Source: an uncultured Veillonellaceae bacterium (GTDB taxonomy: Bacteria > Bacillota > Negativicutes > UBA1444). Taken from it: DNA of 64,000 bases. The notes beneath the pieces were generated by a model that saw only the letters and a program-made list of their open reading frames with translations, was not told the DNA's origin and made no database searches. This document shows, in pieces, positions 23,508 through 63,699 of this stretch (its first letter is position 1; the number at the start of each line of letters is the position of its first letter). The position numbers were made by a program, and so were the translations under genes. The stretch covers positions 48,207 to 112,206 of the forward strand of contig CAZRLN010000002.1 in NCBI GenBank assembly GCA_964601085.1, read 5' to 3'.

Positions 23508-24401
23508 TCAATGATTTGGCGGTTGATTGCTGGCGTAAGGGGGAGGATTTGACATTGTCTTCATTTTTTGCCGCCGTTTCCACCACCACCAGATCCCGGC
23601 CACCAATACTCCGAGCGGCGACAGTACGATAACCGTTGCAATGAGATATAGGACTACGTCCCCTGCCGCGACCCAGCTATCACGCAAAATGGCCTTCAGC
23701 TTGCCAAAGAAGTTAGTTTCCGTGATCACCGCGACTTCGCTGATTCGAAGCTGAAGCGTGGACATTTCAATTTTTCCGCTCAACGCTTTGAGCTTTCCAG
23801 TGGTGCTTTCGATCTGTGTTCGCACGGTCGCCAGCTCTTTCTCCACCTTGAGTACTTCTTCCACCGTATTGGCGGTAGCTAGTATCTCGCGCAATCGTTT
23901 TTCCTGTCGTTGCATGTTTTCCAAACGAGCGGAAATATCAACAACTTCTTCTGTGACATCCTGTGAAGAGATGCTGCGTTGCCGGACAATGACATCGGGC
24001 AGGATCGACAGTTCGTTGACAAAATCCTGCAACTGTCCGGCGGGAATTCGCAGGGTAAAGTTACCCGTTCGTCTGCCATTTCCATCCAGCGTGACATTGG
24101 CAGAACTCAGAATTCCCTTGCGCGCGGACAGGCGGTCCCGTACCCGGCCTTCGGTGGCCGGCAAATCTTTAGTCTCAAGCGCAACTTGCGCTGTTTCGAT
24201 GACCTTTCGCAGTTCGGGAAGCGGTTTGATGTTACCGTTAGCTGGCGCTGGAGCGGCGGTTTTCGAGGCAGGCTGCGGCGCAGAGGATGGTCTGGGCGAA
24301 TCGCTTTTGGAACCGCTGCCACAAGCCGCGGTAAGGATCAGAATCATTAGCATAGCCAGGAGCAGGATGCTATGGCGAACAAGTCGTCTGGATGAGTACA
24401 T
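23508..24401 (-). CDS. lipoprotein with coiled-coil region and C-terminal TM anchor (DUF4349-like)
   Basis: Start at M60 of the track ORF (ATG 24401, SD GGGAGG 9 nt upstream). Signal plus lipobox MLMILILTAAC; coiled-coil middle; C-terminus ...LVAGIWWWWKRRQK. Confidence 0.7.
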   Translation of the reverse strand: MYSSRRLVRHSILLLAMLMILILTAACGSGSKSDSPRPSSAPQPASKTAAPAPANGNIKPLPELRKVIETAQVALETKDLPATEGRVRDRLSARKGILSSANVTLDGNGRRTGNFTLRIPAGQLQDFVNELSILPDVIVRQRSISSQDVTEEVVDISARLENMQRQEKRLREILATANTVEEVLKVEKELATVRTQIESTTGKLKALSGKIEMSTLQLRISEVAVITETNFFGKLKAILRDSWVAAGDVVLYLIATVIVLSPLGVLVAGIWWWWKRRQKMKTMSNPPPYASNQPPNH

Positions 24402-24441
24402 TGCATACGCCTCCCTGCTGTCTGTTCTATTACAGACCAGA

Positions 24442-25215
24442 CTATAAGTTTTGGCCGCAATGGCTGCAAAATCGTGAATTTGGGGGAACCGCGGCGCCGC
24501 AATGCGGACAAGCGCCAAACGACGGCTGTTGCGGTTGGTTGTAGTTTTGATAACCTGGTTGAGGCGGATATGACGCATAGGCGGGCTGTTTGGTGAGAAC
24601 GAGGGTGCCGGCGATCAGATCATGCAATGCTTGTTTTCGCTGAGTAAAGAAAGCCATGATGTAACCGATCAGAAACCAACCGCTGAGACAAGCTTTGACC
24701 ACGAGGCGGGCAGTTGCCCGTCCGACGGAGATACGGGCTCCATTTAAGTCGGTAACCTGAATGCCCATTATTTTTTTGCCGACAGTCCCTTGCCAACCGG
24801 AGCTTTCCATTAACGCAAAATACGCCCAAGTCAAGAGAAAAGAGATGATCATGATCATGCCGAAACCGGCGAGAAAAGTTCCGATGGCGTCAGCCGCCAT
24901 GCCCGGATTAAATGAAGTATCCTTACCACCGGTGCGGTGAATGACTCTCACTGCCATCATGGCGCTAAGTACTGAAGAGATAATTCCGATGGGAATCCCT
25001 AGTATGATGCCATCAATCAAAGCAGCCAGAAAACGTTGCCCAATACCGGCATAGCTCATTGGCGGTCCATACGCAGGAAAAGATGGCTGTTGCGGTGGAT
25101 ATCCTGGATACCCGGGCGGCGGCATTGGCGGCGGAGCGGTTGTCAACGGGGTTGCACAGGCTTGGCAGTAATATACCTCTGGAGGGTTGTCCCGGCCACA
25201 TCGTGGGCATATCAT
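24442..25215 (-). CDS. RDD-family membrane protein flanked by N- and C-terminal zinc ribbons and Pro/Gln/Tyr-rich linkers
   Basis: 257 aa; N-terminal CPRCGR...CQAC and C-terminal CPHCG...CSHCG; central RDD domain (RFLAALIDGIIL...RQALHDLIAGTLV). Confidence 0.75.
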   Translation of the reverse strand: MICPRCGRDNPPEVYYCQACATPLTTAPPPMPPPGYPGYPPQQPSFPAYGPPMSYAGIGQRFLAALIDGIILGIPIGIISSVLSAMMAVRVIHRTGGKDTSFNPGMAADAIGTFLAGFGMIMIISFLLTWAYFALMESSGWQGTVGKKIMGIQVTDLNGARISVGRATARLVVKACLSGWFLIGYIMAFFTQRKQALHDLIAGTLVLTKQPAYASYPPQPGYQNYNQPQQPSFGACPHCGAAVPPNSRFCSHCGQNL

Positions 25216-30701: not shown

Positions 30702-31868
30702 TTATTTTGCCAGCCATTTTTCGGCCCGATCAACAAATTCAGCCAGCCGAGCTTCGGATTGGACGAGGGCGATTCGAACGTAACCTTCGCCGCAATCGCC
30801 AAAACCAATGCCGGGAACCACCGCTACCCCCGTATTCTTTAGTAGATCAGCGACAAAATCAAAGGAGGTTTGGCGAGTTGGCACGGGTGCCCAAATATAC
30901 ATGGAGGCTTTGGGTCGCTCCACTTTCCAGCCAAACCGGGCAAAACCGTCTACCAAGACATCCCTTCGCCGTTGATAACGCAGGGCAGTTTCGAGGATGC
31001 AATCGTCCGGACCGTTCAATGCGGCGATAGCCCCCTGTTGGATCGCATAAAAGATCCCATAATCAAAATTGGATTTCAAGCGCCCCAGCAAGGCGATGAC
31101 TTCCGCATTGCCCACGACGAAAGCTACCCGGCAGCCAGCCATGCTATAGGTTTTGGACAGGGAATGAAATTCAATGGCCACATCCTTGGCGCCCGGAATG
31201 GACAAAAAACTGTCAGGGCGATAACCGTCAAACACCAGTTCGCTATAGGCGAAATCATGAATCACCAAGAAATTATATTGTTTTGCCAAGGCAACAACTT
31301 TGACGAAGAAATCCCGGGGCGCGGTTGCAGCAAGCGGGTTGTTGGGATAATTCAGGATCATGATTTTGGCTCGACGCAAGATTGCGGGATCAATCGCGTC
31401 CAGGTCCGGCAGGTACGCATTTTCCGGTTTCAATGGCATCGTTACGATTTCCGCGCCGGCAACCAGCGGTCCGGCGAAGAAAATCGGATACCCGGGATCG
31501 GGAACCAGGACGACATCACCAGGATTGACCAAGCATAACCCGATGTGGGCCAGGCCGTCCTGGGATCCCATTAAGGAATGAATTTCAGTGGCGGGATCCA
31601 GACCGACGGAAAACTTTCTTTGGTACCAATTGGCGACTGCCTGAAGGAATTCCGGCGTTCCCTTCGACAAGGTGTAGCCATAACTGGCATCGTTGTCCAG
31701 GGCGTCCTTCATGGCGGCTACGATATGGGGCGCCGGAGCCAAATCGGGACTGCCCAAACTGAGGGTAATGACATCCTTTCCTTCCGCAATCGCCTGCTTT
31801 CGCATCGTATCCACTTGCGTGAATATGGCGGAAGAAAGTCCTTTAAGTCGTTCAGCCTGTTGAAACAT
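30702..31868 (-). CDS. class I/II PLP-dependent aminotransferase (aspartate/aromatic/branched-chain type)
   Basis: Start at M6 of the track ORF (SD GGGAGAG). SLSKTYSMAGCRVAF carries the PLP-lysine motif. Confidence 0.85.
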   Translation of the reverse strand: MFQQAERLKGLSSAIFTQVDTMRKQAIAEGKDVITLSLGSPDLAPAPHIVAAMKDALDNDASYGYTLSKGTPEFLQAVANWYQRKFSVGLDPATEIHSLMGSQDGLAHIGLCLVNPGDVVLVPDPGYPIFFAGPLVAGAEIVTMPLKPENAYLPDLDAIDPAILRRAKIMILNYPNNPLAATAPRDFFVKVVALAKQYNFLVIHDFAYSELVFDGYRPDSFLSIPGAKDVAIEFHSLSKTYSMAGCRVAFVVGNAEVIALLGRLKSNFDYGIFYAIQQGAIAALNGPDDCILETALRYQRRRDVLVDGFARFGWKVERPKASMYIWAPVPTRQTSFDFVADLLKNTGVAVVPGIGFGDCGEGYVRIALVQSEARLAEFVDRAEKWLAK

Positions 31869-31957
31869 CACATTCTCTCCCATCTGTTCATGCCCATTGG
31901 TAATGGATTTCTACATGTATTATTCTCGGCGCAAAGAGAAAATCCTTGTTTTCCGGA

Positions 31958-32030: not shown

Positions 32031-33434
32031 TTATTTTTTGGCGTTTTGTTTCTGTTGCACGTATTCGTGAATGGCTTCGGCCGCCTTTTTCCCGGCGCCC
32101 ATGGCCAAAATGACGGTGGCGGCGCCGGTAACGATATCGCCGCCGGCGAAAACCCCTTCTTTAGTTGTTTTGCCGTTTTCATCCGCGACGATATTGCCGT
32201 GCTTATTTGTTTCCATCCCCGGGGTGGTGTTCTGGATCAATGGATTGGGGCCCTGACCGATGGCGATGACCACGGTGTCCACATCCAGTACGAAGTTGGA
32301 TCCTGCTTTTTCTACCGGACGACGGCGACCCGACGCATCCGGTTCGCCCAGCTCCATCCGAACGCATTCCAGTCCCTTGACCCAGCCGGCTTCATCGCCA
32401 ATCACCTGAATCGGGTTGGTCAGCAATTGGAAATCGACGCCTTCTTCGTGAGCATGTTCCACTTCTTCGGCCCTTGCCGGCATTTCATCCTTGGAGCGGC
32501 GGTACACGATATAGACGTTTTCCGCACCAAGACGCAAGGCGGTACGCGCGGAGTCCATGGCGACATTGCCGCCGCCGACGACGGCGACATTTCGGCCAAC
32601 GCGAACCGGGGTGGCGGTTTCCGGGAACTTGTACGCTTTCATGAGATTCACGCGGGTCAAAAATTCATTGGCAGAATAAACGCCGTTGAGATTTTCGCCC
32701 AGCATTTTCATGAAGTGCGGCAATCCGGCGCCGGTGCCGATAAATACCGCGTCATATTTCTCTTCTTCCATCAGTTCGTCGACGGTGTAGGTTTTGCCAA
32801 TGACGGCATTGACTACCACTTCGACGCCGAGATATTTCAGGGTTTCGATTTCGCATTTTACGATTTCCTTCGGCAGCCGGAATTCGGGAATCCCGTACAT
32901 CAGAACGCCGCCGGGCGTATGCAATGCTTCAAACAGGGTTACCTGATACCCGAGGCGGACCAAATCGCCGGCCGCGGTCAGGCTGGCCGGTCCCCCACCG
33001 ATGACCGCCACTTTGCCGATTTTTTTCTCGGGCGGCAATTCCGGCATCGGGCAGCTTCCGCCCAACGAAAAGTCGGCGACAAACCGTTCCAGACGGCCAA
33101 TGGCGACCGGTTCCCCTTTTATTCCGCGGATACAGAGCTTTTCGCACTGATTTTCCTGGGGGCAGACCCGACCGCAGACCGCCGGCAGATTGTTATACTG
33201 GCGGATGATTTTATTGGCGGCGATATAATCGCCTTCTTTAACTTTACTGATGAATGCGGGAATATCAATTCCAACCGGGCAGCCATTACGGCAGGGCGAG
33301 TTTTTGCACTGCAGGCAGCGGGCGGCTTCGGCTTTGGCGGTTTCTTCATCATAACCCAAGGTAACTTCGTTAAAATTATGCCGGCGAACGTTGGCTTCCT
33401 GTTCCGGCATTTTATGTTTTACTTGTTGTGACAT
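32031..33434 (-). CDS. nfnB: NADH-dependent reduced ferredoxin:NADP+ oxidoreductase subunit B (GltD-like; 2x[4Fe-4S], FAD/NADPH)
   Basis: CLQCKNSPC...CPV...CGRVCPQENQCE; two Rossmann GxGxxG/A motifs. Start ATG 33434 with SD GGGGGA. Confidence 0.85.
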   Translation of the reverse strand: MSQQVKHKMPEQEANVRRHNFNEVTLGYDEETAKAEAARCLQCKNSPCRNGCPVGIDIPAFISKVKEGDYIAANKIIRQYNNLPAVCGRVCPQENQCEKLCIRGIKGEPVAIGRLERFVADFSLGGSCPMPELPPEKKIGKVAVIGGGPASLTAAGDLVRLGYQVTLFEALHTPGGVLMYGIPEFRLPKEIVKCEIETLKYLGVEVVVNAVIGKTYTVDELMEEEKYDAVFIGTGAGLPHFMKMLGENLNGVYSANEFLTRVNLMKAYKFPETATPVRVGRNVAVVGGGNVAMDSARTALRLGAENVYIVYRRSKDEMPARAEEVEHAHEEGVDFQLLTNPIQVIGDEAGWVKGLECVRMELGEPDASGRRRPVEKAGSNFVLDVDTVVIAIGQGPNPLIQNTTPGMETNKHGNIVADENGKTTKEGVFAGGDIVTGAATVILAMGAGKKAAEAIHEYVQQKQNAKK

Positions 33435-34249
33435 GATCCATCCCCCTTGCATTGCCGTTCCTGCGTTTGATACATGCGCGCCCGGGACATCAGTCCGTTG
33501 AAGTCGACGGCATGACCGTCAAACTCCGGTCCATCCACACAGGCGAATTTGGTTTCGCCGCCAACGCTGCAACGGCAACCGCCGCACATGCCGGTTCCGT
33601 CCACCATGATCGGGTTGAGGCTGACCAATGTGGGAATCTTATAGGGACGGGTTACCTCGGCAACGCCCCGCATCATGATCATTGGTCCGATCGCCATGAC
33701 CCGGTCGATTTTTTCGCCGGCGGCAATCATGTCTTTCAGGGGATCGACAACCAATCCCTTGCGTCCGGCGGAGCCGTCATCGGTGGTAATGTGCAGAACA
33801 TCGCTGACCGAACGCATTTCTTTCTCCATGATCAACAAATCCGCATTACGGGCGCCGATGATGGATACTACACGGTTGCCTGCTTCCTTATAAGCACGGG
33901 CGATGGGATAGACCGGCGCGACACCGATGCCGCCGCCAATGCAAACCACCGTGCCGAAATTTTCAATTTCAGTTGCTTTGCCGAGCGGTCCGGCAACGTC
34001 CAGAAGCGCATCACCGGCTTTTAGTGTGCCGAGTTGACGGGTAGTGTCGCCCACTTCTTGAAAAATCAAGTGAATGGAGCCCTGTTCGCGATTATAGTCG
34101 GCGATCGTCAAGGGAATCCGTTCGCCGTTTTCATCAATCCGCAGGATGATGAATTGTCCGGCCTGACATTTGCGAGCAACCATCGGCGCTTCCACGATAA
34201 AGGACTTCACGCCGGCGGACAGCTCTTCCGCACTGAGAATTTTGTACAA
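33419..34249 (-). CDS. nfnA: NfnA / sulfide dehydrogenase beta-like ferredoxin-NADP+ reductase subunit (PyrK fold, 2Fe-2S)
   Basis: Start TTG 34249 (L51 of the track ORF, SD AAGGAGG 7 nt upstream). C-terminus GMCGGCRCSVGGETKFACVDGP. Confidence 0.85.
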   Translation of the reverse strand: MYKILSAEELSAGVKSFIVEAPMVARKCQAGQFIILRIDENGERIPLTIADYNREQGSIHLIFQEVGDTTRQLGTLKAGDALLDVAGPLGKATEIENFGTVVCIGGGIGVAPVYPIARAYKEAGNRVVSIIGARNADLLIMEKEMRSVSDVLHITTDDGSAGRKGLVVDPLKDMIAAGEKIDRVMAIGPMIMMRGVAEVTRPYKIPTLVSLNPIMVDGTGMCGGCRCSVGGETKFACVDGPEFDGHAVDFNGLMSRARMYQTQERQCKGDGSCHNK

Positions 34250-34262
34250 TTGAATTCCTCCT

Positions 34263-35546
34263 TTATTTAACCAGCCGTAACCCGCGTGCGTTGGTTTCGG
34301 CTTTAACCTTGGCAATGTCGAGAGTGGTGAATTCCCCGTTGCGATAAAGAATGCGTCCATCGACCAAGGTATGGCTGACATCGGCCGAAGCCGCCGCATA
34401 CGTTAGGATGGAGGCAAGGTCGTGTTTGGGGTACCAATGGGGCGCCGTGATGTCGTAAATCGCCAAATCAGCTTTATAACCCGGCTCAATACGACCCAAA
34501 GCGTCACTTTGACCAATGGCGGCGGCGCCGCCTTGATGGGCAATTTGTAATACCTGGCTGGAAGGCAGTACCGTCGGATCCATACGGTCAAGCTTTTGCA
34601 GGAATGAGGCCATCCGGATCTCTTCCAGCATGTCCAGTTTATTGTTGCTGGTGGCGCCGTCCGTTCCCAGCGCGACGGTGACCCCGGCGTTCAGCATGGC
34701 GGCGACTGGTGCGGCGCCGCTGGCCAGTTTTAGATTACTGGAAGGATTGTGGACCACTCGGACTTTTTTTTCGGCGAGAATTCGGATATCATCTTCGGAA
34801 ACCCATACGCAGTGCGCTGCCAAAGTGCCGCAATCGAACACTCCCAGGCCGTCAAGCAAGGCAACCGGCGATTTTCCATAGATGTTTTTGCATTTTTCGA
34901 CTTCATCTTTGGTTTCCGACAAATGAACATGAATTTCCGCCCCGATCCGCCGGGCGATGCCAACGACTTTTTCCATGCAGCGCGGCGGACAGGTGTACGG
35001 GGCATGCGGCCCCAACATCACGGTAATCCGGCCGTCTGCGGCGCCATGGAAGTCATGGAACAATTGTTCATTCTCGGCGAATCGTTCCTCTTGACCTGGA
35101 CCGTCGACCGCAATGAGTCCGCGGGACAACGACGCCCGCATTCCAGTCTCGACGCAGGCCTTCGCCACTTGATCCATAAAAAAGTACATATCGGCAAAAG
35201 CGGTTGTGCCCGAGGCCAGCATTTCGGCAATGGCCAGCTGCGTTCCCCAATATACGTCTTCGGCGGTCAAGTTGGCTTCCGCCGGCCAGATTTTCTTTTG
35301 CAGCCAGTCCATCAGGGCCATGTCGTCGGCATAGCTGCGGAACAGAGTCATAGCCGCATGGGTATGGGCGTTCACCAGACCCGGGGTCGTCAGTTTATTC
35401 CCGCAATCGATTTTCTCTTCCGCTTCCCAATTCGGCGGAGCTTCGCCGCAGAACAGGATACGGCCGTTCTCGATGCCGATATCGCCGTCGATAATTTTGC
35501 CGGCTGGATCAAGGTAGCGCCCGGAGTGCAACAGCAATCTACTCAT
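34263..35546 (-). CDS. mtaD: 5'-methylthioadenosine / S-adenosylhomocysteine / 5'-deoxyadenosine deaminase (amidohydrolase MtaD/DadD family)
   Basis: 427 aa; metal ligands HTH...H...H...D; full-length match to MtaD-type deaminases. Confidence 0.85.
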   Translation of the reverse strand: MSRLLLHSGRYLDPAGKIIDGDIGIENGRILFCGEAPPNWEAEEKIDCGNKLTTPGLVNAHTHAAMTLFRSYADDMALMDWLQKKIWPAEANLTAEDVYWGTQLAIAEMLASGTTAFADMYFFMDQVAKACVETGMRASLSRGLIAVDGPGQEERFAENEQLFHDFHGAADGRITVMLGPHAPYTCPPRCMEKVVGIARRIGAEIHVHLSETKDEVEKCKNIYGKSPVALLDGLGVFDCGTLAAHCVWVSEDDIRILAEKKVRVVHNPSSNLKLASGAAPVAAMLNAGVTVALGTDGATSNNKLDMLEEIRMASFLQKLDRMDPTVLPSSQVLQIAHQGGAAAIGQSDALGRIEPGYKADLAIYDITAPHWYPKHDLASILTYAAASADVSHTLVDGRILYRNGEFTTLDIAKVKAETNARGLRLVK

Positions 35547-35550
35547 ACGA

Positions 35551-36207
35551 TCATCCTTTCCGTTTCAACTGACAATAGTTTTCCACGTAAAACCGGCGCA
35601 TTTGCAGAATATCTTCTTCGTTCAGGCTGCGGGCGCCGCCCAGTTGGCTGGCGATGGCATGGATCTGCGCTGCTTTTTCGACCAATTCGGCGACTAGCAA
35701 CGCTTCCGCCAGGGAGGGCCCGCAAGCAACCGCTCCATGATTCGCCAGTAATACCGCTGTTCTGTCGCCAAGCGCCAAGACGGCGTTTTGGGCCAGCTCG
35801 GGTGTTCCCGGCAACGCATATGGGGCGACAGCCACTTCGCCGCCCACGACTTGCACCATTTCCTCCAGACTGGGCGGAATCGCCTTTCCTGCGACAGCGC
35901 AGGCCGTTGCATAAATGCTGTGGGTGTGGACGACAGCCTGAACTTCAGGATGGGCTTGATAAATCGCCAAATGCAATGGCAATTCGGAGGAAGGGCGTTC
36001 GCCTTCCAGAATATTACCGGCCAAATCGACCACGACGAGGTCGGTGGTCTGCAACTCGGGATATGGACGGCCCGACGGCGTGATCACGACCTGATTGTCC
36101 CGGTCGCCGCGACAACTGATGTTTCCCCAGGTTCCGGCAACCAGGCCCCGCTCGATCATTTGACGCCCGGTATCGATGACGGCCTGTTTGATTTCCGACA
36201 AACTCTT
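35551..36207 (-). CDS. class II aldolase (FucA-like; DHAP-shunt Ald2 / 5-deoxyribulose-1-P aldolase candidate, not MtnB-like)
   Basis: GTWGNIS, catalytic PSSE (as in FucA PSSEW), HTHS; start at M14 of the track ORF (36207) or M1 (36246). Confidence 0.75.
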   Translation of the reverse strand, partial: KSLSEIKQAVIDTGRQMIERGLVAGTWGNISCRGDRDNQVVITPSGRPYPELQTTDLVVVDLAGNILEGERPSSELPLHLAIYQAHPEVQAVVHTHSIYATACAVAGKAIPPSLEEMVQVVGGEVAVAPYALPGTPELAQNAVLALGDRTAVLLANHGAVACGPSLAEALLVAELVEKAAQIHAIASQLGGARSLNEEDILQMRRFYVENYCQLKRKG

Positions 36208-36215
36208 CATTTGGG

Positions 36216-37457
36216 TTACGCCTGATGGAGATAGTCGGTTTGGCAACTGGTCAATGCGTCGATTTTTATGCCCATTGCCGCCAGCTTCAGGTGGGCGACC
36301 TGCAAATCCAGTTCGTGCGGCAAATTATGAACCTCATTGGTCATGGCGTCGTGATTCTTCAAGATATGCAACGCGGCCAGCGCTTGCATTGCAAAGGAAA
36401 GATCCATGATTTCCGTCGGATGGCCGTCGCCGGCCGCCAAATTCACCAGTCGGCCTTCCGCCAGCAAATAAATTTTTCGGCCATCGGCCATTTCGAATTC
36501 TTCGATATTCTTTCGCACAGTACGGGTCGATTTGGCCAAGGCCGCCAGATCGATCTTGTTGATTTCTACGTCGAAGTGACCGGCATTCGCCATGATGGCG
36601 CCCGGCTTCATCCGTTCCAGGTGCTCCCGTCGAATGACATCGTTGCAGCCGGTAACCGTGACAAAGATGTCTCCTGTTTCCGCCGCCGCCAGCATCGGCA
36701 GGACCTGATATCCGTCAAAAACCGCTTCCGCCGCCTTGATCGGATTGATTTCGGTTACGATGACATGAGCTCCCAGACCACGGGCCCGCATCGCCACGCC
36801 TTTGCCGCACCAACCGTAACCGGCGACGACGACGGTTTTGCCGGCGATCGACAGATTCGTCGTTCGCATGATGCCATCCCATACGGACTGGCCGGTACCG
36901 TAACGATTGTCGAACAAATGTTTGCAATCGGCATCGTTCACTGAAATCATGGGGAATTTCAGGCGTCCCTGGGCCGCCAGCGCCCGCAGACGCAATACGC
37001 CGGTGGTGGTTTCTTCCGATCCACCCATCACATTGACGGCCAAGTCGGCGCGTTCGCCATGCAGCAGGGATACCAGGTCGCCGCCGTCGTCGATGATAAT
37101 TTGCGGTTTGGTGTCCAGGGCATGATGCAAAAATTGATCATATTCCGCCGCCGTAGTATTGTACCAAGCGAACACCCCGACTCCGGATTCAGCCAGCGCC
37201 GCCGCCACATCATCCTGCGTGGACAAGGGATTGCTGCCGGTGACCACTACATTGGCCCCCGCATTTTTCAATACCATGCAGAGATAGGCTGTTTTGGCTT
37301 CCAAATGGACCGTCACAACCATGTTGATGCCGGCCAGCGGCTTGGTTTTCGTAAATTCGGCGTTCAGGGAATTCAGTACCGGCATATGCTCCATAACCCA
37401 GTGAATTTTGTCCCATCCCTGCGGCGCAAGTTTAGGATCCCGGATAATTGATTTCAT
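36216..37457 (-). CDS. ahcY: adenosylhomocysteinase, short archaeal/Firmicute type (possibly S-inosylhomocysteine hydrolase)
   Basis: 413 aa; NAD-binding GYGWCGKG; full-length AhcY. Confidence 0.92.
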   Translation of the reverse strand: MKSIIRDPKLAPQGWDKIHWVMEHMPVLNSLNAEFTKTKPLAGINMVVTVHLEAKTAYLCMVLKNAGANVVVTGSNPLSTQDDVAAALAESGVGVFAWYNTTAAEYDQFLHHALDTKPQIIIDDGGDLVSLLHGERADLAVNVMGGSEETTTGVLRLRALAAQGRLKFPMISVNDADCKHLFDNRYGTGQSVWDGIMRTTNLSIAGKTVVVAGYGWCGKGVAMRARGLGAHVIVTEINPIKAAEAVFDGYQVLPMLAAAETGDIFVTVTGCNDVIRREHLERMKPGAIMANAGHFDVEINKIDLAALAKSTRTVRKNIEEFEMADGRKIYLLAEGRLVNLAAGDGHPTEIMDLSFAMQALAALHILKNHDAMTNEVHNLPHELDLQVAHLKLAAMGIKIDALTSCQTDYLHQA

Positions 37458-38518
37458 TGTTTTTCCTCCTCAGAATGTTTCGTGGCCAACTTGCCAATGG
37501 ATAGATCATAAGGCGCTTTCAGAACGCCGGCTTCAGTAATGATGGCCGTCACCAAGTCCGCCGGAGTTACATCGAACGCCGGATTGAAAGCCTGGATTCC
37601 ATACGGCGCGGTGCGGACTCCGCCAAACTGGAAGATTTCATCGTGATGACGTTCCTCGATCGGGATGCCGGACCCATCCGGCAATGAAAAATCAAACGTT
37701 GACAACGGGGCCGCGACATAAAATGGAATATCATGCGCCTGAGCCAATACGGCCAAACCATAGGTGCCGATTTTGTTGGCGACATCGCCATTGCTGGCGA
37801 TGCGGTCGGCGCCGACGATCACCGCTTGCACCCGGCCGGTTTTCATGACCCAGGCGGCCATATTGTCGGTAATCAAGGTGACGGGAATTCCCTGCCGTGA
37901 CAGTTCAAATGCAGTCAGGCGGGCGCCCTGCAACAACGGACGAGTTTCATCGGCATAGACGCCGGTCACGTTTCCGTCGAGCCAGGCCTGCTGAATGACG
38001 CCGAGCGCGGTGCCGACAGCGACGGTCGCCAGAGCTCCGGCATTGCAATGCGTCAGGATGGTCGTCGGCCGACTGAACAACGTAGCTCCATAACGGGAAA
38101 TTTTTTCGTTCATGGCCCGGTCGTCGCGAGCGATGGTTTCCGCCTCTGCTTCCAGCCGACGGAGAAGTTCGGCATCCGACACTTGCTCCCCCGCTTCCCG
38201 GCAGACGTGCATCAGGCGGCGGAGCGCCCAGGACAGGTTCACCGCCGTGGGACGGGTTGCGTTTAACTCGGCGGCGATTCCGGGCAGTTCCGTCCGTAGG
38301 GATTTTCCGGATCTCACCAGTTCGATTGCACCCAGAACCAAGCCAAACGCAGCTGCCGCGCCAATGGCGGGAGCGCCCCTCACTTCCAGCCGCCGGATGG
38401 CTTCCGCCACCCTGCGGTAGTCATGGCAATCAATATAAGATTCCATTAATGGCAGGCGGGTTTGATCCAACAGAATCAAAACTCCGTTTTCCCAACGCAA
38501 AGATGCTGTCATGGCCAT
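37454..38518 (-). CDS. mtnA: S-methyl-5-thioribose-1-phosphate isomerase (eIF-2B-like)
   Basis: LRWENGVLILLDQTRLP and AIGAAAAFG; start at M19 of the track ORF, 1 nt after the mtnP stop. Confidence 0.88.
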   Translation of the reverse strand: MAMTASLRWENGVLILLDQTRLPLMESYIDCHDYRRVAEAIRRLEVRGAPAIGAAAAFGLVLGAIELVRSGKSLRTELPGIAAELNATRPTAVNLSWALRRLMHVCREAGEQVSDAELLRRLEAEAETIARDDRAMNEKISRYGATLFSRPTTILTHCNAGALATVAVGTALGVIQQAWLDGNVTGVYADETRPLLQGARLTAFELSRQGIPVTLITDNMAAWVMKTGRVQAVIVGADRIASNGDVANKIGTYGLAVLAQAHDIPFYVAAPLSTFDFSLPDGSGIPIEERHHDEIFQFGGVRTAPYGIQAFNPAFDVTPADLVTAIITEAGVLKAPYDLSIGKLATKHSEEEKQ

Positions 38519-38519
38519 A

Positions 38520-39323
38520 TCAGAGTTTGAACCCGCCGAATTCACGCAACGCATGCGGGCAGGAACATTCATCCGTCCGGGTCGCGATAAGAATGGTCTG
38601 TTTCAGCAAAGCCCGAATGTTGGCGGCATTTTGTTTCATGGTGTCAACCACTTCGGCATGGGTCAACGGCGTTGAACTGATGCCGGCTGCAAAATTGGTA
38701 ACCATCGAAATCGTTGCATAACAAATTTCCGCTTCGCGCGCCAGCCCGGCTTCCGGAACACCGGTCATTCCCACCAGATCACCGCCCAGCATTGCATAGG
38801 CTTTGATTTCCGCCGCCGTTTCAAACCGGGGGCCCTCGGTGCAGACATAACAGCCGTTTCCATGCAGGGGCAATTCCAGAGTCGCGGCGGCGGCGGCAAT
38901 CGCTTGCCGCAGGGTCGGACAATAAGGGGAAGTCATGTCCACATGCACGACACCCCGATCGCTGCCCTCGTAAAAAGTAGGAATCCGGAGTTTGGTAAAA
39001 TCGAGAAACTGATCCGGCAATACAATATCGCCCGGTTTCATGGTCGCATTTAACGACCCGACAGCCGTAGTCGCGAGGATTTGCTGCACGCCCAGTTTTT
39101 TTAGCGCCCAAATATTCGCCCGATAATTGATCAAATGCGGTGGAATGGAATGATGGCGGCCATGTCGCGGAATAAAGGCAACCGGTCGGCCTTCCAGCAG
39201 TCCGGTCTGGCAGGATACTTCGCCATAGGGTGTATCGACAACAACGGTGGAAACCTGGTCCAGCACGGCGGGATCATAAACTCCCGTACCGCCAATGACG
39301 GCAAGCGACGGCTTGATGCTCAA
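38520..39323 (-). CDS. mtnP: S-methyl-5'-thioadenosine (or methylthioinosine) phosphorylase
   Basis: 267 aa; PNP family II motifs (AVIGGTGVY; HGRHHS). Confidence 0.9.
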   Translation of the reverse strand: MSIKPSLAVIGGTGVYDPAVLDQVSTVVVDTPYGEVSCQTGLLEGRPVAFIPRHGRHHSIPPHLINYRANIWALKKLGVQQILATTAVGSLNATMKPGDIVLPDQFLDFTKLRIPTFYEGSDRGVVHVDMTSPYCPTLRQAIAAAAATLELPLHGNGCYVCTEGPRFETAAEIKAYAMLGGDLVGMTGVPEAGLAREAEICYATISMVTNFAAGISSTPLTHAEVVDTMKQNAANIRALLKQTILIATRTDECSCPHALREFGGFKL

Positions 39324-40000
39324 CTTTGCTCCTCCTTCTGCTCCGCGAAAACGATCTTCAGCAAATCAGACATGGTTTCCAGAATATAATCGGGATTGAC
39401 TGCGATCAGTTCTTCCCAGGGAACGTGGGTCCAACGCACGGCGGCTGTTTTCACGCCGGCGCCCTTCCCGCTCAGCAAATCATGGGCACTGTCGCCGATC
39501 ATGATGCATTCTCCCGCGTCGAGACGGGTATGTTGCAGGGCCGTTAGCACCGGTTCGGGCTCGGGCTTGTGACGAACGGTTTCATCGACGCCGATGACCG
39601 TCGAGAAATACTGTTCGATGTCGAACAGCTTCAAGCCCCGCCGGGCCATGACCGAAGTTTTGGATGTGACGATCGCCAGTTTTACACCGGCGTCATGCAA
39701 AGCGCGGATGGTTTCCGGCACGCTCTCAAAAATGCCGGCCAACTGATCGTGATGAATATGATTGAAGGCACGATAGGTCGCGATCACGGCATCCTCTTCG
39801 CCAGGCGCCAATACTTCCATGGCGGCCCGCAGAGGTTTTCCCATGTAGGGCTGGATGTCCTTCAAAGTGATTGAACGCTGATAATGGGTTTGGAAAGCGT
39901 GCTGAAACGACTTGACGATGAGAGGTGTGGTGTCCAGCAATGTGCCGTCAAGATCAAAAAAAACTCCCCGAAAAAAAGGTAAACTCACGAAATGTTCCAT
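39320..40000 (-). CDS. HAD-superfamily hydrolase (phosphatase, subfamily IA)
   Basis: Start at M25 of the track ORF; motif I FFDLDGTL and motif IV GDSAHD. Confidence 0.7.
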   Translation of the reverse strand: MEHFVSLPFFRGVFFDLDGTLLDTTPLIVKSFQHAFQTHYQRSITLKDIQPYMGKPLRAAMEVLAPGEEDAVIATYRAFNHIHHDQLAGIFESVPETIRALHDAGVKLAIVTSKTSVMARRGLKLFDIEQYFSTVIGVDETVRHKPEPEPVLTALQHTRLDAGECIMIGDSAHDLLSGKGAGVKTAAVRWTHVPWEELIAVNPDYILETMSDLLKIVFAEQKEEQS

Positions 40001-40563
40001 CCTTTGTTGAAAGCTTCTTGATTGGCGGTTACAAATGCCGCCGGGCTTTTGGCCGCGATAGCATCCAACCATAACTCGCGGGTCATGGGCAAACGTTTGG
40101 CCAGCATTCCCAGCAATACGATATTGACTGCTTTGGGATTGCCGGACCGGGCGGCAATGGCGGGGGCATCGACCCTCACAGTTTGGACGCCGGCCCTGTC
40201 CAACCGGTCAAAAACATCGGCAGGGTATTTGGCGGCGCCGATGATGACGGGCATGGGCGAAATCATCTGCTCGTTCACGATGACGATGCCGTTTGGTTTT
40301 AAAAATTCTATCCACCGCAGCGCTTCCAATTGCTCGAAGGCTACAATGAGATCCGCCTCGCCTTTTTCAATCAGCGGCGATATCACCTGATCGCCGATCC
40401 GAACATAGGTCACGACGCTGCCGCCGCGTTGGGCCATACCATGGACTTCCGACTGCTTGACAGACAGGCCGCTTTTTTCGGCAACTTCGCCAATCACTTT
40501 GCCTGCGAACAGGGTCCCCTGTCCGCCAACGCCGACAATCAGAACATTAATGGTGTCCGTCAT
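39985..40563 (-). CDS. iorB: indolepyruvate:ferredoxin oxidoreductase beta subunit
   Basis: 192 aa; VLIVGVGGQGTLFAGKV N-terminus. Confidence 0.8.
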   Translation of the reverse strand: MTDTINVLIVGVGGQGTLFAGKVIGEVAEKSGLSVKQSEVHGMAQRGGSVVTYVRIGDQVISPLIEKGEADLIVAFEQLEALRWIEFLKPNGIVIVNEQMISPMPVIIGAAKYPADVFDRLDRAGVQTVRVDAPAIAARSGNPKAVNIVLLGMLAKRLPMTRELWLDAIAAKSPAAFVTANQEAFNKGWNIS

Positions 40564-42305
40564 TTTTCCCCACCTGCCTTCCGGATCGCCTGGAATTTAC
40601 AAACCTGTTGGCAGACGCCACAACCGGTGCACATTTTGCTTTCAATGCGCACCTTGCCGTCCTTCAGTTCAATCGCCGGACAGCCGATTTTCAGACAAGA
40701 GCGGCAAAGTTTGCAGGCGTCGGAGTCGATCCAATACGATTCGCGAACGGGATTGCGCAGAATCAACATGCAGGGGCGACGGGCAATAATGACTGCCGGC
40801 TCACGGGCGACCAGCGCTTCCCGTAGCGCCGAAGCGGTTTCTTCCAGGTTGTATGCGTCAACAATCCACAGTTTTTCGACGCCGCAGGCGCGCACAATTT
40901 CTTCTATACGGACTTGCGGAGCCGGTTTGCCGGAAATGTCGAAGCCGGTGGCGGGGTTTTGCTGATGACCGGTCATGCCGGTAATGCTGTTGTCCAGAAT
41001 AACGACCGTAACCAGGCCTTTGTTGTAGACCACATCGATCAGGCCGGTGATGCCCGAATGCAAAAATGTCGAATCGCCGATGGTGGCGACGATTTTCTTA
41101 TCCGGCAGGACTTTGGAAAACCCCAGGGCATTTGGAATGCTGGCGCCCATGTCGATGCAGGTGTCGCCCGCGCTGAGCGGCGGCATGTATCCCAATGAAT
41201 AACAACCGATGTCGCTGGTGATGATATCCGCCATTTTTGCGATGACGGAAAACACTCCCCGATGTGGGCACCCGGCGCATAATACCGGCGGCCGGCCCGG
41301 CACTTCCGAACAATCCACGGTTAACAAAGGCAACCGGATACCCAGCAATTTTTCGCGGATTATCGCCACGCTTAATTCGCCGATCCGGGGAAAAATCTCC
41401 TTGCCCTTTACCGGCAAGCCCAAGGCTTTGATTTGCTCTTCGAGGAATGGTTCCCCTTCTTCAATCACCAAAACCTCGCCGTGATTGGCGATGAAATCCC
41501 GGATCAATCCTTCCGGCAATGGCCAGGTCAAGCTGAGTTTCAGGTACGTGGCCCGGTCGCCGAGCGCTTCCCGGGCATACAGATAGCCGGGACCGCTGGT
41601 AATGACCGCAAATTCCTTGCCGTCGCCTTCCACGCGATTGCCGGGGAAACGATCCGCATACTTGGACAGACGCAGTACCCGGTCTTCAATGATCGGGCGT
41701 TTTGGACGTTGATTCGCCGGTACCACGAAATATTTCGCGGAGTCTTTTTTGTAGGGTTTAACCGGGATTTCCACTCGTTCCTGTAATTCCACGAGACTTT
41801 TGGAATGTGAAATCCGTGTGGTGGTCCGCAACATAACTGGAGTATCAAACAATTCGCTGATTTCCAGGGCGGCTGCGACAAAATCTTTGGCTTCCTGACT
41901 ATCGGTAGGTTCCAACAGGGCAATCTTCATAAATTTGGCGTAATAGCGGTTGTCCTGTTCATCCTGGGAACTGTGCATGCCGGGATCGTCGGCGGAAACC
42001 AGAACAAATCCGCCGCTCACTCCATTGTAGCCCGCCGTGAACAAGGGATCGGCTGCAACATTCACACCAACGTGTTTCATCGCGGCAAGGACGCGGGCGC
42101 CGGCGATCGAAGCGCCCTGCGCCACTTCCACGGCAACTTTTTCATTGGTGGACCATTGCGCATTAATTTCCGGATATCGGGCGATGTTTTCCAAAATTTC
42201 CGTGCTCGGTGTTCCGGGATAGGCGCAGGCAACCCGAACGCCTGCCTCATAGGCTCCCCGGGCGATGGCCTCATTGCCGGTCAACAATTTTTTGATAACG
42301 TCCAC
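40560..42305 (-). CDS. iorA: indolepyruvate:ferredoxin oxidoreductase alpha subunit
   Basis: KKLLTGNEAIARGAYEAG, a TPP motif, and C-terminal 2x[4Fe-4S]. Start approximated at GTG (V43 of the track ORF); uncertain by a few codons. Confidence 0.85.
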   Translation of the reverse strand: MDVIKKLLTGNEAIARGAYEAGVRVACAYPGTPSTEILENIARYPEINAQWSTNEKVAVEVAQGASIAGARVLAAMKHVGVNVAADPLFTAGYNGVSGGFVLVSADDPGMHSSQDEQDNRYYAKFMKIALLEPTDSQEAKDFVAAALEISELFDTPVMLRTTTRISHSKSLVELQERVEIPVKPYKKDSAKYFVVPANQRPKRPIIEDRVLRLSKYADRFPGNRVEGDGKEFAVITSGPGYLYAREALGDRATYLKLSLTWPLPEGLIRDFIANHGEVLVIEEGEPFLEEQIKALGLPVKGKEIFPRIGELSVAIIREKLLGIRLPLLTVDCSEVPGRPPVLCAGCPHRGVFSVIAKMADIITSDIGCYSLGYMPPLSAGDTCIDMGASIPNALGFSKVLPDKKIVATIGDSTFLHSGITGLIDVVYNKGLVTVVILDNSITGMTGHQQNPATGFDISGKPAPQVRIEEIVRACGVEKLWIVDAYNLEETASALREALVAREPAVIIARRPCMLILRNPVRESYWIDSDACKLCRSCLKIGCPAIELKDGKVRIESKMCTGCGVCQQVCKFQAIRKAGGEK

Positions 42306-42360: not shown

Positions 42361-43134
42361 TTAAAAAATCCTGCTAATCGACTCGTTCCATTGTTGCAGA
42401 TTTTTAAGACGTGAATAATCCGTAAGATCAAAATGAATCGGCGTCAAGGAAATTTGATTAGCTCGGATGGCAGCTACGTCAGTATCGTCGGAATTCGGCG
42501 TTTCCATGGGTGTTCCCGCCATCCAGTAATAGATCCGTCCACGCGGATCAACCCGTTTTTCGAAAGCATTTTCATATTCTATGCTTCCCAGCCGGGTGAT
42601 CGATACGCCACGGATTTCTGTCGTCGGAACGGGTGGTACGTTAATGTTGATCAGGCTAAAAGCAGGAAATGTCTTGTCGATGATTTGCTGCACAACACTA
42701 CGACAAAAGGCGGCCGCCGGAGCGAAATCCGGCTCACCATCTGTGGCCAGGGAAACAGCGATGGCCGGAATCCCGTGCATCGCCCCTTCCACGGCCGCAC
42801 TGACCGTGCCGGAATACAAGACATCGGTTGCCAGATTCGGACCGTGATTGATTCCGGAGATCACCAAATCAGGCTTCTCCGTCATTAACGTGTCCAGGGC
42901 AATTTTGACGCTGTCGGCCGGAGTGCCGCCAATGCGCCAACCGGTGATGCGGGAATCCTCAAATGATTGTTTATTGACCCAGATGGGATGGTAGACTGTG
43001 ATGGAATGACCGGTGGCGCTTTGTTGCTGGCTTGGCGCGGCTACTATAATTTCAGCGATTGATTTTAGTTGCTCCCAAAGCGCCTGGATTCCCGGCGCCC
43101 GGATCCCGTCGTCGTTTGTTAGTAATATGTGCAA
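42361..43134 (-). CDS. surE: 5'/3'-nucleotidase SurE
   Basis: MHILLTNDDGIRAPGI N-terminus. Confidence 0.9.
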   Translation of the reverse strand: MHILLTNDDGIRAPGIQALWEQLKSIAEIIVAAPSQQQSATGHSITVYHPIWVNKQSFEDSRITGWRIGGTPADSVKIALDTLMTEKPDLVISGINHGPNLATDVLYSGTVSAAVEGAMHGIPAIAVSLATDGEPDFAPAAAFCRSVVQQIIDKTFPAFSLININVPPVPTTEIRGVSITRLGSIEYENAFEKRVDPRGRIYYWMAGTPMETPNSDDTDVAAIRANQISLTPIHFDLTDYSRLKNLQQWNESISRIF

Positions 43135-43164
43135 TTTTTGTCCCTGCCTTTTTGCTTGTAGTAT

Positions 43165-43923
43165 TTAAAGCTGTCCCATCAGTTTATGGGTCTGCGGAAT
43201 CACCCGTACGTTTTGGAGGCTCGCCAAGGCCAGCTCCTGCCACCGCAAGACTTGCTCCGGAACTACCGGCGTGACGCCGTGGACCGGTGTGACGGGCTGG
43301 AGAATCAGGGGAATTGCGGGATTAATATCACAAATCAAAGCAATGGCTCTTTCTAGTTCGCTCGGAGATGTCCGCCCGCTCAGCACGATTTTTACAAAGA
43401 CTTCGCGTTGGCAGGCCACTTTTAAAAATTCAGCGTGTTCTTGCCAATACTCTTGTTGTTCCGGCAATTCGCTGGGGAGTTTAAAATCCATGGAAACAAT
43501 ATCGATATGTTGAATCACTTGCGCCAATATCGTCGGCAAAGTTCCGTTCGTTTCCAGATATAGCCTTACACCTTTGTCCCGCAACGGCGATAATGCAACA
43601 ACCGCCTGGGGCTGCAGCAAGGGTTCACCGCCAGTCAGACTGATGGAATGATGCGGGGTGCGGCAGAGATTGGCGACGGCAGCGAACAGTTCGGAGGCTG
43701 CGACTGGATTCGTAATGGATCCGAACATCCTGCTTCCCGCCTCCGTCTCGACGCGTGCCGCCGCCGGAACGGCGAAAGAGTCCCGGGTATCGCAATACCG
43801 GCAGAAAAGATTGCAGCCGGCCAAGCGAACGAACACTTGCCGGCAGCCTACAAATAGCCCTTCTCCCTGAATCGATGAAAAGATTTCTACTAAGTTCATG
43901 GGTGAGACAACATTTTCCTGCAT
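43165..43923 (-). CDS. queE: 7-carboxy-7-deazaguanine synthase QueE (radical SAM)
   Basis: CNLFCRYCDT cluster; start at M4 of the track ORF (SD GGAGG). Confidence 0.85.
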   Translation of the reverse strand: MQENVVSPMNLVEIFSSIQGEGLFVGCRQVFVRLAGCNLFCRYCDTRDSFAVPAAARVETEAGSRMFGSITNPVAASELFAAVANLCRTPHHSISLTGGEPLLQPQAVVALSPLRDKGVRLYLETNGTLPTILAQVIQHIDIVSMDFKLPSELPEQQEYWQEHAEFLKVACQREVFVKIVLSGRTSPSELERAIALICDINPAIPLILQPVTPVHGVTPVVPEQVLRWQELALASLQNVRVIPQTHKLMGQL

Positions 43924-43928
43924 GGGAA

Positions 43929-44306
43929 TCACGCCTCCGGAATGTAAGAAGCACAGGAACGAGGGGATTCCCAGACTCTTACGGCAAAGACCCTTACCCG
44001 GTCCGAGAAGGCCGGGTTGTTGGCAAGAGTATCATACACATATTTAGCGATATGTTCGGCAGTTGGCGGCAGCGATGAAAACACCGGCGTCTCGTTCAGG
44101 TAATAATGATCCAATGTTGCCAGGACCTCCGCCACATGGGATTTCAGAACCTTGAAATCCATTAACAGGCCCGAGGAATCCAGCGTCGATCCCCGTACGG
44201 ACACTTCCACCTTCCAGTTGTGGCCGTGCAGACGGCAGCATTTTCCTTCGTAATCGGGCAAACGATGTGCCGCTTCAAACTCTTCAATAATGGTCAGTTC
44301 AAACAT
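43929..44306 (-). CDS. queD: 6-carboxy-5,6,7,8-tetrahydropterin synthase QueD
   Basis: CxxxHGH motif (CCRLHGHNW); start at M16 of the track ORF (SD GGAGA). Confidence 0.85.
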   Translation of the reverse strand: MFELTIIEEFEAAHRLPDYEGKCCRLHGHNWKVEVSVRGSTLDSSGLLMDFKVLKSHVAEVLATLDHYYLNETPVFSSLPPTAEHIAKYVYDTLANNPAFSDRVRVFAVRVWESPRSCASYIPEA

Positions 44307-44351
44307 CTGATTTCTCCATTCGCAATGAAATGCAAAAAGTGAGCCATGCAC

Positions 44352-61845: not shown

Positions 61846-61860
61846 AACTTTTCTCCCCTT

Positions 61861-63640: not shown

Positions 63641-63690
63641 AAACCTTCCCCCAAAAAATAAAATCCCAAAGAAAAAATTCTTTGGGAAAA
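63641..63690 (-). terminator. terminator hairpin of the FMN-riboswitch expression platform
   Basis: Minus strand: CCCAAAGAA-tttt-TTCTTTGGG followed by ATTTTATTTTTTGGGGG, immediately 5' of the ribD SD. Confidence 0.7.
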
Positions 63691-63699
63691 TAACCACAG

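Follow-up and report, generated by a model that had tools for sequence, protein, structure and literature searches.

A candidate operon for deamination-first recycling of S-adenosylhomocysteine, 5'-methylthioadenosine and 5'-deoxyadenosine in an uncultured Negativicutes bacterium

The locus treated here lies on the minus strand of a 64-kb stretch of contig CAZRLN010000002.1 from an uncultured Veillonellaceae bacterium (the whole stretch is called the window), where genes for a deaminase-like amidohydrolase (MtaD), an adenosylhomocysteinase homologue (AhcY) and a nucleoside phosphorylase (MtnP) share one gene string. It raises the question of whether S-adenosylhomocysteine (SAH) and 5'-methylthioadenosine (MTA), together with 5'-deoxyadenosine, are cleaved as adenine nucleosides, or are deaminated first and cleaved as hypoxanthine nucleosides. 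Our reading, at a probability of about 0.65, is that one operon recycles all three deamination-first, via hypoxanthine nucleosides; the substrates named below are those predicted from the observed gene identities, signature residues and synteny. Family assignments were made by NCBIfam and Pfam profile scans, with bit scores judged against the curated cut-offs. The five genes on which the reading depends are as follows.

38520-39323, minus strand: MtnP, MTAP-family phosphorylase with a 6-oxopurine (hypoxanthine) signature, 267 aa (TIGR01694, NF006599, motifs)
37454-38518, minus strand: MtnA-type 5-methylthioribose-1-phosphate / 5-deoxyribose-1-phosphate isomerase, 354 aa (TIGR00512)
36216-37457, minus strand: AhcY, short-form (archaeal-type) adenosylhomocysteinase homologue, 413 aa (NF004005, HxExK motif)
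35551-36210, minus strand: class II (metal-dependent) FucA/DrdA-like aldolase, 219 aa (Pfam Aldolase_II)
34263-35546, minus strand: MtaD/Tm0936/DadD-type amidohydrolase, 427 aa (PDB matches, Tm0936 alignment)

These genes belong to an uninterrupted minus-strand string running from ~42.3 to 32.0 kb in the open reading frame (ORF) list of the window. From the indolepyruvate:ferredoxin oxidoreductase (IOR) alpha gene to the NfnB-like gene, both listed further below, every junction is a 4-nt overlap (GTGA, TTGA, ATGA) or a gap of 1-13 nt, and because of this the string is read as having the arrangement of a single operon. The likely ATG of MtnA lies 1 nt past the MtnP stop, and MtaD lies 670 nt downstream of AhcY. 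No terminator signals above shuffled expectation were found inside the string, and the promoter and terminator scan as a whole gave counts at or below shuffled expectation, so the operon start was placed only at or upstream of IOR-alpha. A preliminary description of the locus had made an MtaD-type deaminase and a 413-aa short-form AhcY co-operonic, and the ORFs, their strand and their tight junctions are as it described. MtnP, which it also placed in the operon, is there, although the range it gave (34263-37457) leaves out both MtnP and MtnA; its gene set of deaminase, AhcY and MtnP is present, but the class II aldolase between AhcY and MtaD had been overlooked. The aldolase would add a dihydroxyacetone phosphate (DHAP) shunt end to the MTA/5'-deoxyadenosine branch.

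AhcY scored 668 bits against NF004005 (cut-off 275) and 594 bits against TIGR00936 (cut-off 498), and it combines the AdoHcyase fold (Pfam AdoHcyase, 1.9e-56) with the NAD-binding domain (AdoHcyase_NAD, 9.8e-54). It aligned end to end with PfuSAHH, MmaSAHH and TmSAHH, and long bacterial and plant forms aligned only from about residue 135 onward; this is the short archaeal-type form, without an insertion of ~40 residues and with a shortened C-terminus. Residues 51-55 read HLEAK (context VHLEAKTA) and fit the fingerprint HxExK. When 18 SAHH homologues were assayed (Koeppl 2024; PMC10978960), all six HxExK enzymes (M. jannaschii, M. infernus, M. maripaludis, P. furiosus, T. kodakarensis and T. 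maritima) preferred S-inosyl-L-homocysteine (SIH), and all 12 HxTxE/Q enzymes preferred SAH. In crystals of PfuSAHH and MmaSAHH, the motif Lys hydrogen-bonds O6 of hypoxanthine and the Glu hydrogen-bonds N1 (PMC10978960). The best PDB matches of the window AhcY were PfuSAHH (7R37/7R38, 522 bits), MmaSAHH (7R3A, 508 bits, deposited under the name 'S-inosyl-L-homocysteine hydrolase') and TmSAHH (470 bits); the SAH-only SacSAHH of Sulfolobus (7R39) scored lower, at 446 bits. Its closest relative is from a Sporomusaceae metagenome-assembled genome (MAG; 93% identical), followed by Sporomusa silvacetica (77%). Motif and nearest structures together point to AhcY as a predicted SIH hydrolase.

For MtaD, the top seven PDB matches represent five proteins at 251-281 bits and include the characterised MTA/SAH deaminases Cv1032 (4f0r), PA3170 (4dyk/4gbd) and Tm0936 (1p1m/1j6p), with E-values of 1e-83 to 1e-76 for 4f0r, 4gbd and Tm0936. 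Also among them are 3lnp and 4dzh, deposited merely as amidohydrolases; 8-oxoguanine, guanine and triazine enzymes reached at most 188 bits in the same search. In an alignment to Tm0936 (reference sequence confirmed identical to PDB 1p1m), MtaD keeps H55, H57, W75, E84, R136, R148, H173, H200, E203, H228 and D279. The metal ligands H55, H57, H200 and D279 and the catalytic E203 and H228 are thus all kept; of the remainder, W75, E84 and H173 reportedly contact the nucleoside and R136 and R148 the homocysteine carboxylate (Hermann et al. 2007). MtaD is accordingly best described as a predicted deaminase for SAH, MTA and 5'-deoxyadenosine. Other identities tried for it were dropped because of low scores: guanine deaminase (154 bits, cut-off 375), 8-oxoguanine deaminase (267 bits, cut-off 532), aminofutalosine deaminase (105 bits, cut-off 320), and SsnA or triazine hydrolase. 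The SIH route for SAH that had been proposed for this locus gains support from the HLEAK motif, from the SIH preference of the nearest AhcY structures and from the Tm0936 residues kept in MtaD.

MtnP passed TIGR01694 (310 bits, cut-off 275) and also NF006599, the methylthioinosine (MTI) phosphorylase model (281 bits, cut-off 223). Models for purine nucleoside phosphorylases (PNPs) gave at most 142 bits, below their cut-offs, which places the protein in the MTAP branch of the trimeric PNP superfamily. Since the MTA and MTI phosphorylase models are passed alike, hidden Markov model scores leave the base specificity undecided, and aligned residues were used instead. In the motifs GPRFET, VTNFAAG and LTHAEV, the residues that align with positions 178, 220, 222 and 233 of human MTAP are Glu, Asn, Ala and His, where the human enzyme (reference sequence checked against PDB 1cb0) has Ser178, Asp220, Asp222 and Val233. 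The Glu/Asn/Ala set (E-N-A) is common to the window MtnP and to 24 of 24 MTAP-family homologues adjoining AhcY, whereas the solved MTAPs aligned (Sulfolobus, Aeropyrum, human, Schistosoma and the bacterial RsfP) keep Ser/Asp/Asp (S-D-D), in the motifs PRFST/PQFST and TDYD/TDFD. With the base-binding segment (residues 153-234) as PDB query, the top match was 3ozb, the characterised MTI phosphorylase of P. aeruginosa (PaMTIP), whose motifs GPRLET, VVNPAAG and ITMAEI hold the same Glu/Asn/Ala. At full length, MtnP scored 198 bits with PaMTIP, 198 with human MTAP and 228-251 with archaeal MTAPs.

In a set of 150 family representatives (clusters at 50% identity), residues 178 and 220 were Glu/Asn in 118 and Ser/Asp in 27, mixed pairs being almost absent; the residue at 222 was Ala, Gly or Cys alongside Glu/Asn and Asp alongside Ser/Asp. 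By their sequence distribution the three positions form a coupled two-state specificity signature, with MtnP in the 6-oxopurine state. The hypoxanthine specificity is well supported by these residues, and the 5' specificity was inferred from gene context; the predicted substrates are MTI, 5'-deoxyinosine and probably inosine. Close homologues of MtnP are named 'Probable 6-oxopurine nucleoside phosphorylase' in UniRef and S-methyl-5'-thioadenosine phosphorylase at NCBI. A search of plasmids for PGAP-named MTI phosphorylase gave only MTA phosphorylase names among the matches listed (40 of 94).

Gene neighbourhoods were compared in species-representative genomes, at the 80 loci whose AhcY is closest to that of the window. 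MtaD lies directly downstream of AhcY on the same strand in 26 of the 80, the order MtnP-MtnA-AhcY-MtaD is found in 22, and the aldolase stands between AhcY and MtaD in 10; with such recurrence, the mtaD/ahcY arrangement is not a chance adjacency. The 22 syntenic loci span Sporomusaceae (including Sporomusa), Phascolarctobacterium, Veillonella, Succiniclasticum, Pelotomaculum and Desulfotomaculum. The window had been put forward as a bacterial Firmicute example of deamination-first recycling; such an example it would be, but not a one-off, as the arrangement extends over Negativicutes and some Desulfotomaculia, and Thermotoga is an earlier bacterial precedent. Where an E-N-A phosphorylase locus adjoins AhcY, the motif is HLEAK in 24 of 24 and MtaD is adjacent in 23 of 24. 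As a control, metagenome contigs were scanned with an alignment of S-D-D (adenine-type) phosphorylases, which gave 80 loci: MtaD was found in none of the 80 within the available flanks, and AhcY was near MtnP in six, five of which also have MtnA. All six carry an AhcY with HVTTE or HVTSE, the SAH-type motif HxTxE. Phosphorylase base residues, AhcY motif and presence of the deaminase switch together, and nothing else argues as strongly for an operon working on hypoxanthine nucleosides as this covariation of three independent characters. It also supports, at the level of residues, the MTI route proposed earlier for MTA, as MtnP shares Glu/Asn/Ala with PaMTIP and the set covaries with the deaminase. 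The argument is weakened because, of the six S-D-D/HxTxE loci, just four have a usable downstream flank and because the covariation counts are uncorrected for shared ancestry.

Five of the S-D-D loci (L091, L108, L112, L117 and L125) have a distinct conserved order, MtnA-MtnP(S-D-D)-...-AhcY(HVTTE), with no deaminase in the available flanks; this looks like an adenine-type counterpart of the window operon. One contig labelled Segatella copri (L008) carries MtnP-MtnA-AhcY-aldolase-MtaD-NfnAB with the order and similarity of the Phascolarctobacterium loci, and is probably mis-binned.

The same comparisons bear on a conventional, adenine-based account, in which AhcY splits SAH into adenosine and homocysteine, MtnP converts MTA and 5'-deoxyadenosine to adenine ahead of an ordinary DHAP shunt, and the amidohydrolase is a side enzyme (e.g., for adenosine, for 5'-deoxyadenosine only, for aminofutalosine or for another purine). 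Phosphorylase-isomerase-aldolase clusters working on 5'-deoxyadenosine are known (PMC6079011), and one of the control loci (L157) is such a cluster, an S-D-D MtnP-aldolase-MtnA shunt without deaminase or AhcY. HxExK enzymes also keep some SAH activity (PMC10978960), and both the NCBI name of the MtnP homologues and the pass on TIGR01694 fit an adenine enzyme. In the window MtnP, however, the readers of the 6-amino group, Ser178 and Asp220, have given way to Glu and Asn, the 6-oxo pair that PaMTIP has as well, and PaMTIP reportedly does not use MTA (Guan 2011). AhcY likewise carries the SIH-type motif; the deaminase co-occurs with E-N-A and HxExK, whereas S-D-D pairs with an HxTxE AhcY and no deaminase; and MtaD missed the aminofutalosine and guanine deaminase models by the margins given above. 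We regard this account as improbable.

Downstream of the phosphorylase, MtnA scored 430.7 bits against TIGR00512 (salvage_mtnA, cut-off 279). It was rejected as a ribose-1,5-bisphosphate isomerase (TIGR00511, 188 bits against 314; NF053831 and NF053830 far under their cut-offs), and with that identity a halophile-style pentose-bisphosphate pathway, involving the HAD phosphatase and a ribulose-1-phosphate aldolase, was dropped. The aldolase matched Pfam Aldolase_II at 5.6e-60, and fuculose-phosphate aldolase models span its full length at ~172 bits. Its catalytic Glu, His-x-His and a further His are conserved in the alignment, and its PDB matches were FucA of S. pneumoniae (4c24, 146.7 bits), DrdA of B. 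thuringiensis (6btd, 133.1 bits) and FucA of E. coli (129 bits). DrdA is a proven 5-deoxyribulose-1-phosphate aldolase (PMC6079011). Phosphorylase, MtnA-type isomerase and class II aldolase are clustered here as in 10 related loci, and on context and family the aldolase is predicted to split 5-methylthioribulose-1-phosphate or 5-deoxyribulose-1-phosphate into DHAP and an aldehyde.

Its position in an MtnP/MtnA cluster would also suit an MtnB-type methylthioribulose-1-phosphate dehydratase opening classical methionine salvage, and there are partial matches to the MtnB models TIGR03328 (86.7 bits) and NF006672 (83.8 bits). Both models cover the N-terminal half alone and lie below their cut-offs (137 and 226), so the protein fails them both, while the fuculose-phosphate aldolase models fit over the full length and the best solved relatives are aldolases, DrdA among them. 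No enolase-phosphatase or dioxygenase genes were found among the ORFs scanned. Sporomusaceae are moreover strict anaerobes, and classical methionine salvage needs O2. A dehydratase at this position is therefore very improbable.

The residue at the Val233 site brings in a further account. MtnP has His there (Met in PaMTIP) and not a hydrophobic residue of a 5'-alkylthio pocket, and so do most syntenic MtnP homologues. In trimeric PNPs a His at this position touches the 5'-OH, and the spacing from Asn to His, 12 residues, is that of bacterial trimeric PNPs. For this reason MtnP was filed as an MTAP-family 6-oxopurine nucleoside phosphorylase and not as a strict MTI phosphorylase, and, in a point that counts against an MTA branch, it could be mainly an inosine/guanosine phosphorylase. 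Only the SAH branch would then be deamination-first, the phosphorylase being a plain inosine/guanosine enzyme of the Pyrococcus PfPNP type that finishes purine salvage, and MtnA and the aldolase would serve another supply of 5-deoxypentose, or MTA and 5'-deoxyadenosine products of enzymes encoded elsewhere. The UniRef name, which is not that of an MTI phosphorylase, agrees with this, as do the Veillonella and Pelotomaculum clusters, which are without the aldolase. It is harder to reconcile with MtnA, which is fixed directly between phosphorylase and AhcY in the 22 loci, passes the 5-methylthioribose-1-phosphate (MTR-1-P) and not the ribose-1,5-bisphosphate isomerase model, and as an MTR-1-P/5-deoxyribose-1-phosphate isomerase would be without a substrate unless the adjoining phosphorylase supplies one. 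The M. jannaschii orthologue of the phosphorylase reportedly takes six purine nucleosides including MTI and 5'-deoxyinosine (Miller 2018, cited in PMC6302742). We hold a deamination-first SAH branch alone to be unlikely, though less so than adenine-based recycling.

Several further observations weigh against the operon-wide, hypoxanthine-based reading. R148 of Tm0936 is replaced by Ala or Lys in most syntenic MtaD relatives, with R136 invariant. MtaD reached the curated cut-off of none of the NCBIfam equivalog models and so was assigned to no subfamily: the best was NF004701 (487 bits, cut-off 609), followed by the 5'-deoxyadenosine deaminase model NF005557 (375 bits, cut-off 522) and the bifunctional MTA/SAH deaminase model NF012037 (299 bits, cut-off 779). 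The aldolase is no nearer to DrdA than to true FucA, and is missing from the clusters of Veillonella and Pelotomaculum. HxExK enzymes retain slow SAH turnover (PMC10978960). HLEAK is identical in 80 of 80 closest genome relatives of AhcY, and in Paenibacillus and Brevibacillus it occurs with no deaminase within 10 kb; as deaminase-less neighbourhoods are included, the motif may in part be a lineage or clade mark. The HLEAK loci L015-L080 take in Paenibacillus, Brevibacillus, Cohnella, Moorella and the Bacteroidales MAGs L075 and L079, and many are from aerobic Bacillales that likewise have no deaminase in that distance. In such genomes, either MtaD is encoded elsewhere or the HxExK enzymes are ordinary SAH hydrolases, and these loci bear on how widely the published HxExK rule applies.

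In the deamination-first scheme, homology and the conserved ligand residues suggest that MtaD would convert SAH, MTA and 5'-deoxyadenosine to SIH, MTI and 5'-deoxyinosine. AhcY, by its HxExK motif, would hydrolyse SIH to inosine and homocysteine, and the phosphorylase would cleave MTI and 5'-deoxyinosine to hypoxanthine and 5-methylthioribose-1-phosphate or 5-deoxyribose-1-phosphate; given the PNP-like His of the 5' pocket, inosine would probably also be phosphorolysed, to hypoxanthine and ribose-1-phosphate. MtnA, which passed its equivalog model, would isomerise the 1-phosphates to the ribulose-1-phosphates, and the aldolase, judged by context and family, would, like that of the DHAP shunt, release DHAP with either 2-(methylthio)acetaldehyde or acetaldehyde. 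The hypoxanthine would return to the purine pool by phosphoribosylation, a step for which the operon holds no gene. The absence of an MtnN-type nucleosidase, noted in the preliminary description, was borne out within the 64-kb window: no Pfs/MtnN-like or LuxS-like protein was found there, either by tblastn with E. coli sequences as queries or when 29 ORFs of the cluster and its surroundings were scanned with Pfam.

By analogy, the scheme matches the M. jannaschii system, and in part those of Thermotoga and P. aeruginosa. It amounts to a well-supported and readily testable prediction from sequence rather than a surprise in principle. The M. jannaschii set (Miller and White 2014, 2015, 2018; reviewed in PMC6302742 and PMC10978960) comprises DadD (MJ1541), SIH hydrolase (MJ1388), MTI phosphorylase (MJ0060) and MTR-1-P isomerase (MJ0454). 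One promiscuous deaminase for SAH, MTA and 5'-deoxyadenosine, an HxExK AhcY for SIH, and an MTAP-family 6-oxopurine phosphorylase and MtnA-type isomerase for MTI and 5'-deoxyinosine would be common to both. The window genes differ in being gathered into a single bacterial operon, in a Sporomusaceae genome whose lineage is mostly known for mesophiles, and in including a class II aldolase, which suggests a DHAP-shunt end and not the archaeal 6-deoxy-5-ketofructose-1-phosphate route proposed for M. jannaschii.

Tm0936 and TmSAHH of Thermotoga maritima, the latter sharing HxExK, are the bacterial precedent for conversion of SAH to SIH and then to inosine and homocysteine. Thermotoga is, however, a hyperthermophile and also has an MTA/SAH nucleosidase (PMC10978960), and no Thermotoga operon joining deaminase or SAHH to phosphorylase, isomerase and aldolase was reported in the literature examined. 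In P. aeruginosa, PA3170 (4gbd) and PA3004 (3ozb) deaminate MTA and then phosphorolyse the product to hypoxanthine and MTR-1-P. The Glu/Asn/Ala signature is shared and the window MtaD scores 263 bits with PA3170, but PaMTIP has Met in place of His at the 5' pocket and the P. aeruginosa SAHH prefers SAH (PMC10978960).

Known DHAP shunts consist of MtnP or MtnN+MtnK, MtnA and Ald2 in R. rubrum and extraintestinal pathogenic (ExPEC) E. coli, and of DrdK-DrdI-DrdA in B. thuringiensis (PMC6079011, PMC10986504). They resemble the window in clustering phosphorylase, MtnA-type isomerase and class II aldolase, with DHAP and an aldehyde as the predicted products here. They enter from adenine nucleosides and release adenine, whereas the window has a predicted deaminase, a hypoxanthine-type phosphorylase and an embedded predicted SIH hydrolase; the DHAP-shunt papers mention neither a deaminase nor a hypoxanthine-type entry. 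In the current literature the SIH route is limited to some Euryarchaeota and thermophilic bacteria, and a 2026 review links the HxExK switch to hyperthermophily (PMC13406329). No earlier description of the window operon in Negativicutes was found in the searchable literature. What appears to be new is its occurrence as a single conserved operon, with a DHAP-shunt aldolase, in Negativicutes and Desulfotomaculia that include gut and oral commensals.

If the scheme is correct, a single operon turns SAH, MTA and 5'-deoxyadenosine into homocysteine, hypoxanthine and DHAP, and the widely propagated labels 'adenosylhomocysteinase' and 'MTA phosphorylase' name the wrong substrates in these lineages. 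MTA and 5'-deoxyadenosine are inhibitors of radical-SAM enzymes, and the scheme would also account for their removal in strict anaerobes, given that the canonical pathway needs O2 and that no nucleosidase was found in the 64-kb window. At about even odds, deamination-first recycling is the standard operon-encoded route in a large group of Bacillota whose lineages are usually taken to be mesophilic, including the human-associated Veillonella and Phascolarctobacterium, and not a peculiarity of methanogens and hyperthermophiles. The route would be recognisable in genomes by an HxExK AhcY, a Glu/Asn/Ala phosphorylase and an adjacent MtaD, and relatives living at moderate temperature, Veillonella parvula and Sporomusa, would serve as in vivo test systems.

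The remaining genes of the string flank the five described above.

39985-42305, minus strand: ORF pair, putative indolepyruvate:ferredoxin oxidoreductase alpha and beta (translations read by eye)
39320-39988, minus strand: HAD-family phosphatase, PpaX-like, 222 aa (NF009804, Pfam HAD_2)
33419-34249, minus strand: NfnA-like (NfnA/NfnB scores: NF004862 421 bits, TIGR01316 601 bits)
32031-33452, minus strand: NfnB/GltD-like (same NfnA/NfnB scores)

The IOR, HAD phosphatase and NfnAB genes appear, by their spacing, to be on the same transcript, and their link to the pathway is guesswork. The IOR pair is coupled to the HAD gene by 4-nt overlaps, and a syntenic copy is present only in the Sporomusaceae MAG (L001). 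The HAD phosphatase scored 237.7 bits against NF009804 (PpaX, cut-off 218) and 6.9e-50 against Pfam HAD_2. Its GTG start overlaps the IOR-beta stop, a TTGA overlap couples it to MtnP, and six Negativicutes loci (L001, L002, L005, L006, L013 and L023) have a homologue in the position directly upstream of MtnP. Our guess is a sugar-1-phosphate or nucleotide phosphatase; by analogy with the overflow valve reported for 5-deoxyribose-1-phosphate in Synechococcus, it could act as one for sugar-1-phosphates. The gap from MtaD to NfnA is 13 nt and contains AGGAGG, and MtaD also adjoins NfnAB in L001, L005, L007, L008, L013 and L023 (the Sporomusaceae MAG L001, Phascolarctobacterium and Succiniclasticum). 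NfnAB is apparently co-transcribed after MtaD and probably stands outside the salvage chemistry.

A class I/II aminotransferase (30702-31883, minus strand) lies 147 nt downstream of NfnB. Models for LL-DAP aminotransferase and for transaminases give it scores slightly under their cut-offs, and the Sporomusa silvacetica homologue (L002) comes directly after MtaD. The window protein may be an MtnE-like transaminase, or unrelated. Directly upstream of the IOR genes (42361-44351, minus strand) are SurE (a 5'/3'-nucleotidase), a radical-SAM protein that we read as QueE and a member of the PTPS family that we read as QueD, and SurE is upstream of the cluster in L001-L004 as well. A DUF4349 gene (23508-24578, minus strand) lies in the window ~12 kb from AhcY, and another (11445-12572) immediately follows AhcY in Paenibacillus chitinolyticus (L049); the recurrence is probably coincidence.

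No riboswitch or leader was found in or near the operon when the window and seven syntenic loci were scanned with Rfam at gathering thresholds. Two FMN riboswitches were the sole matches in that set, one in the window and unrelated to the operon, the other in Veillonella (L010), ~5 kb upstream of its MtnP. The first (63717-63845, minus strand, 88 bits) is found close to where the window ends downstream and is assumed to head a riboflavin operon (ORFs 59284-63715).

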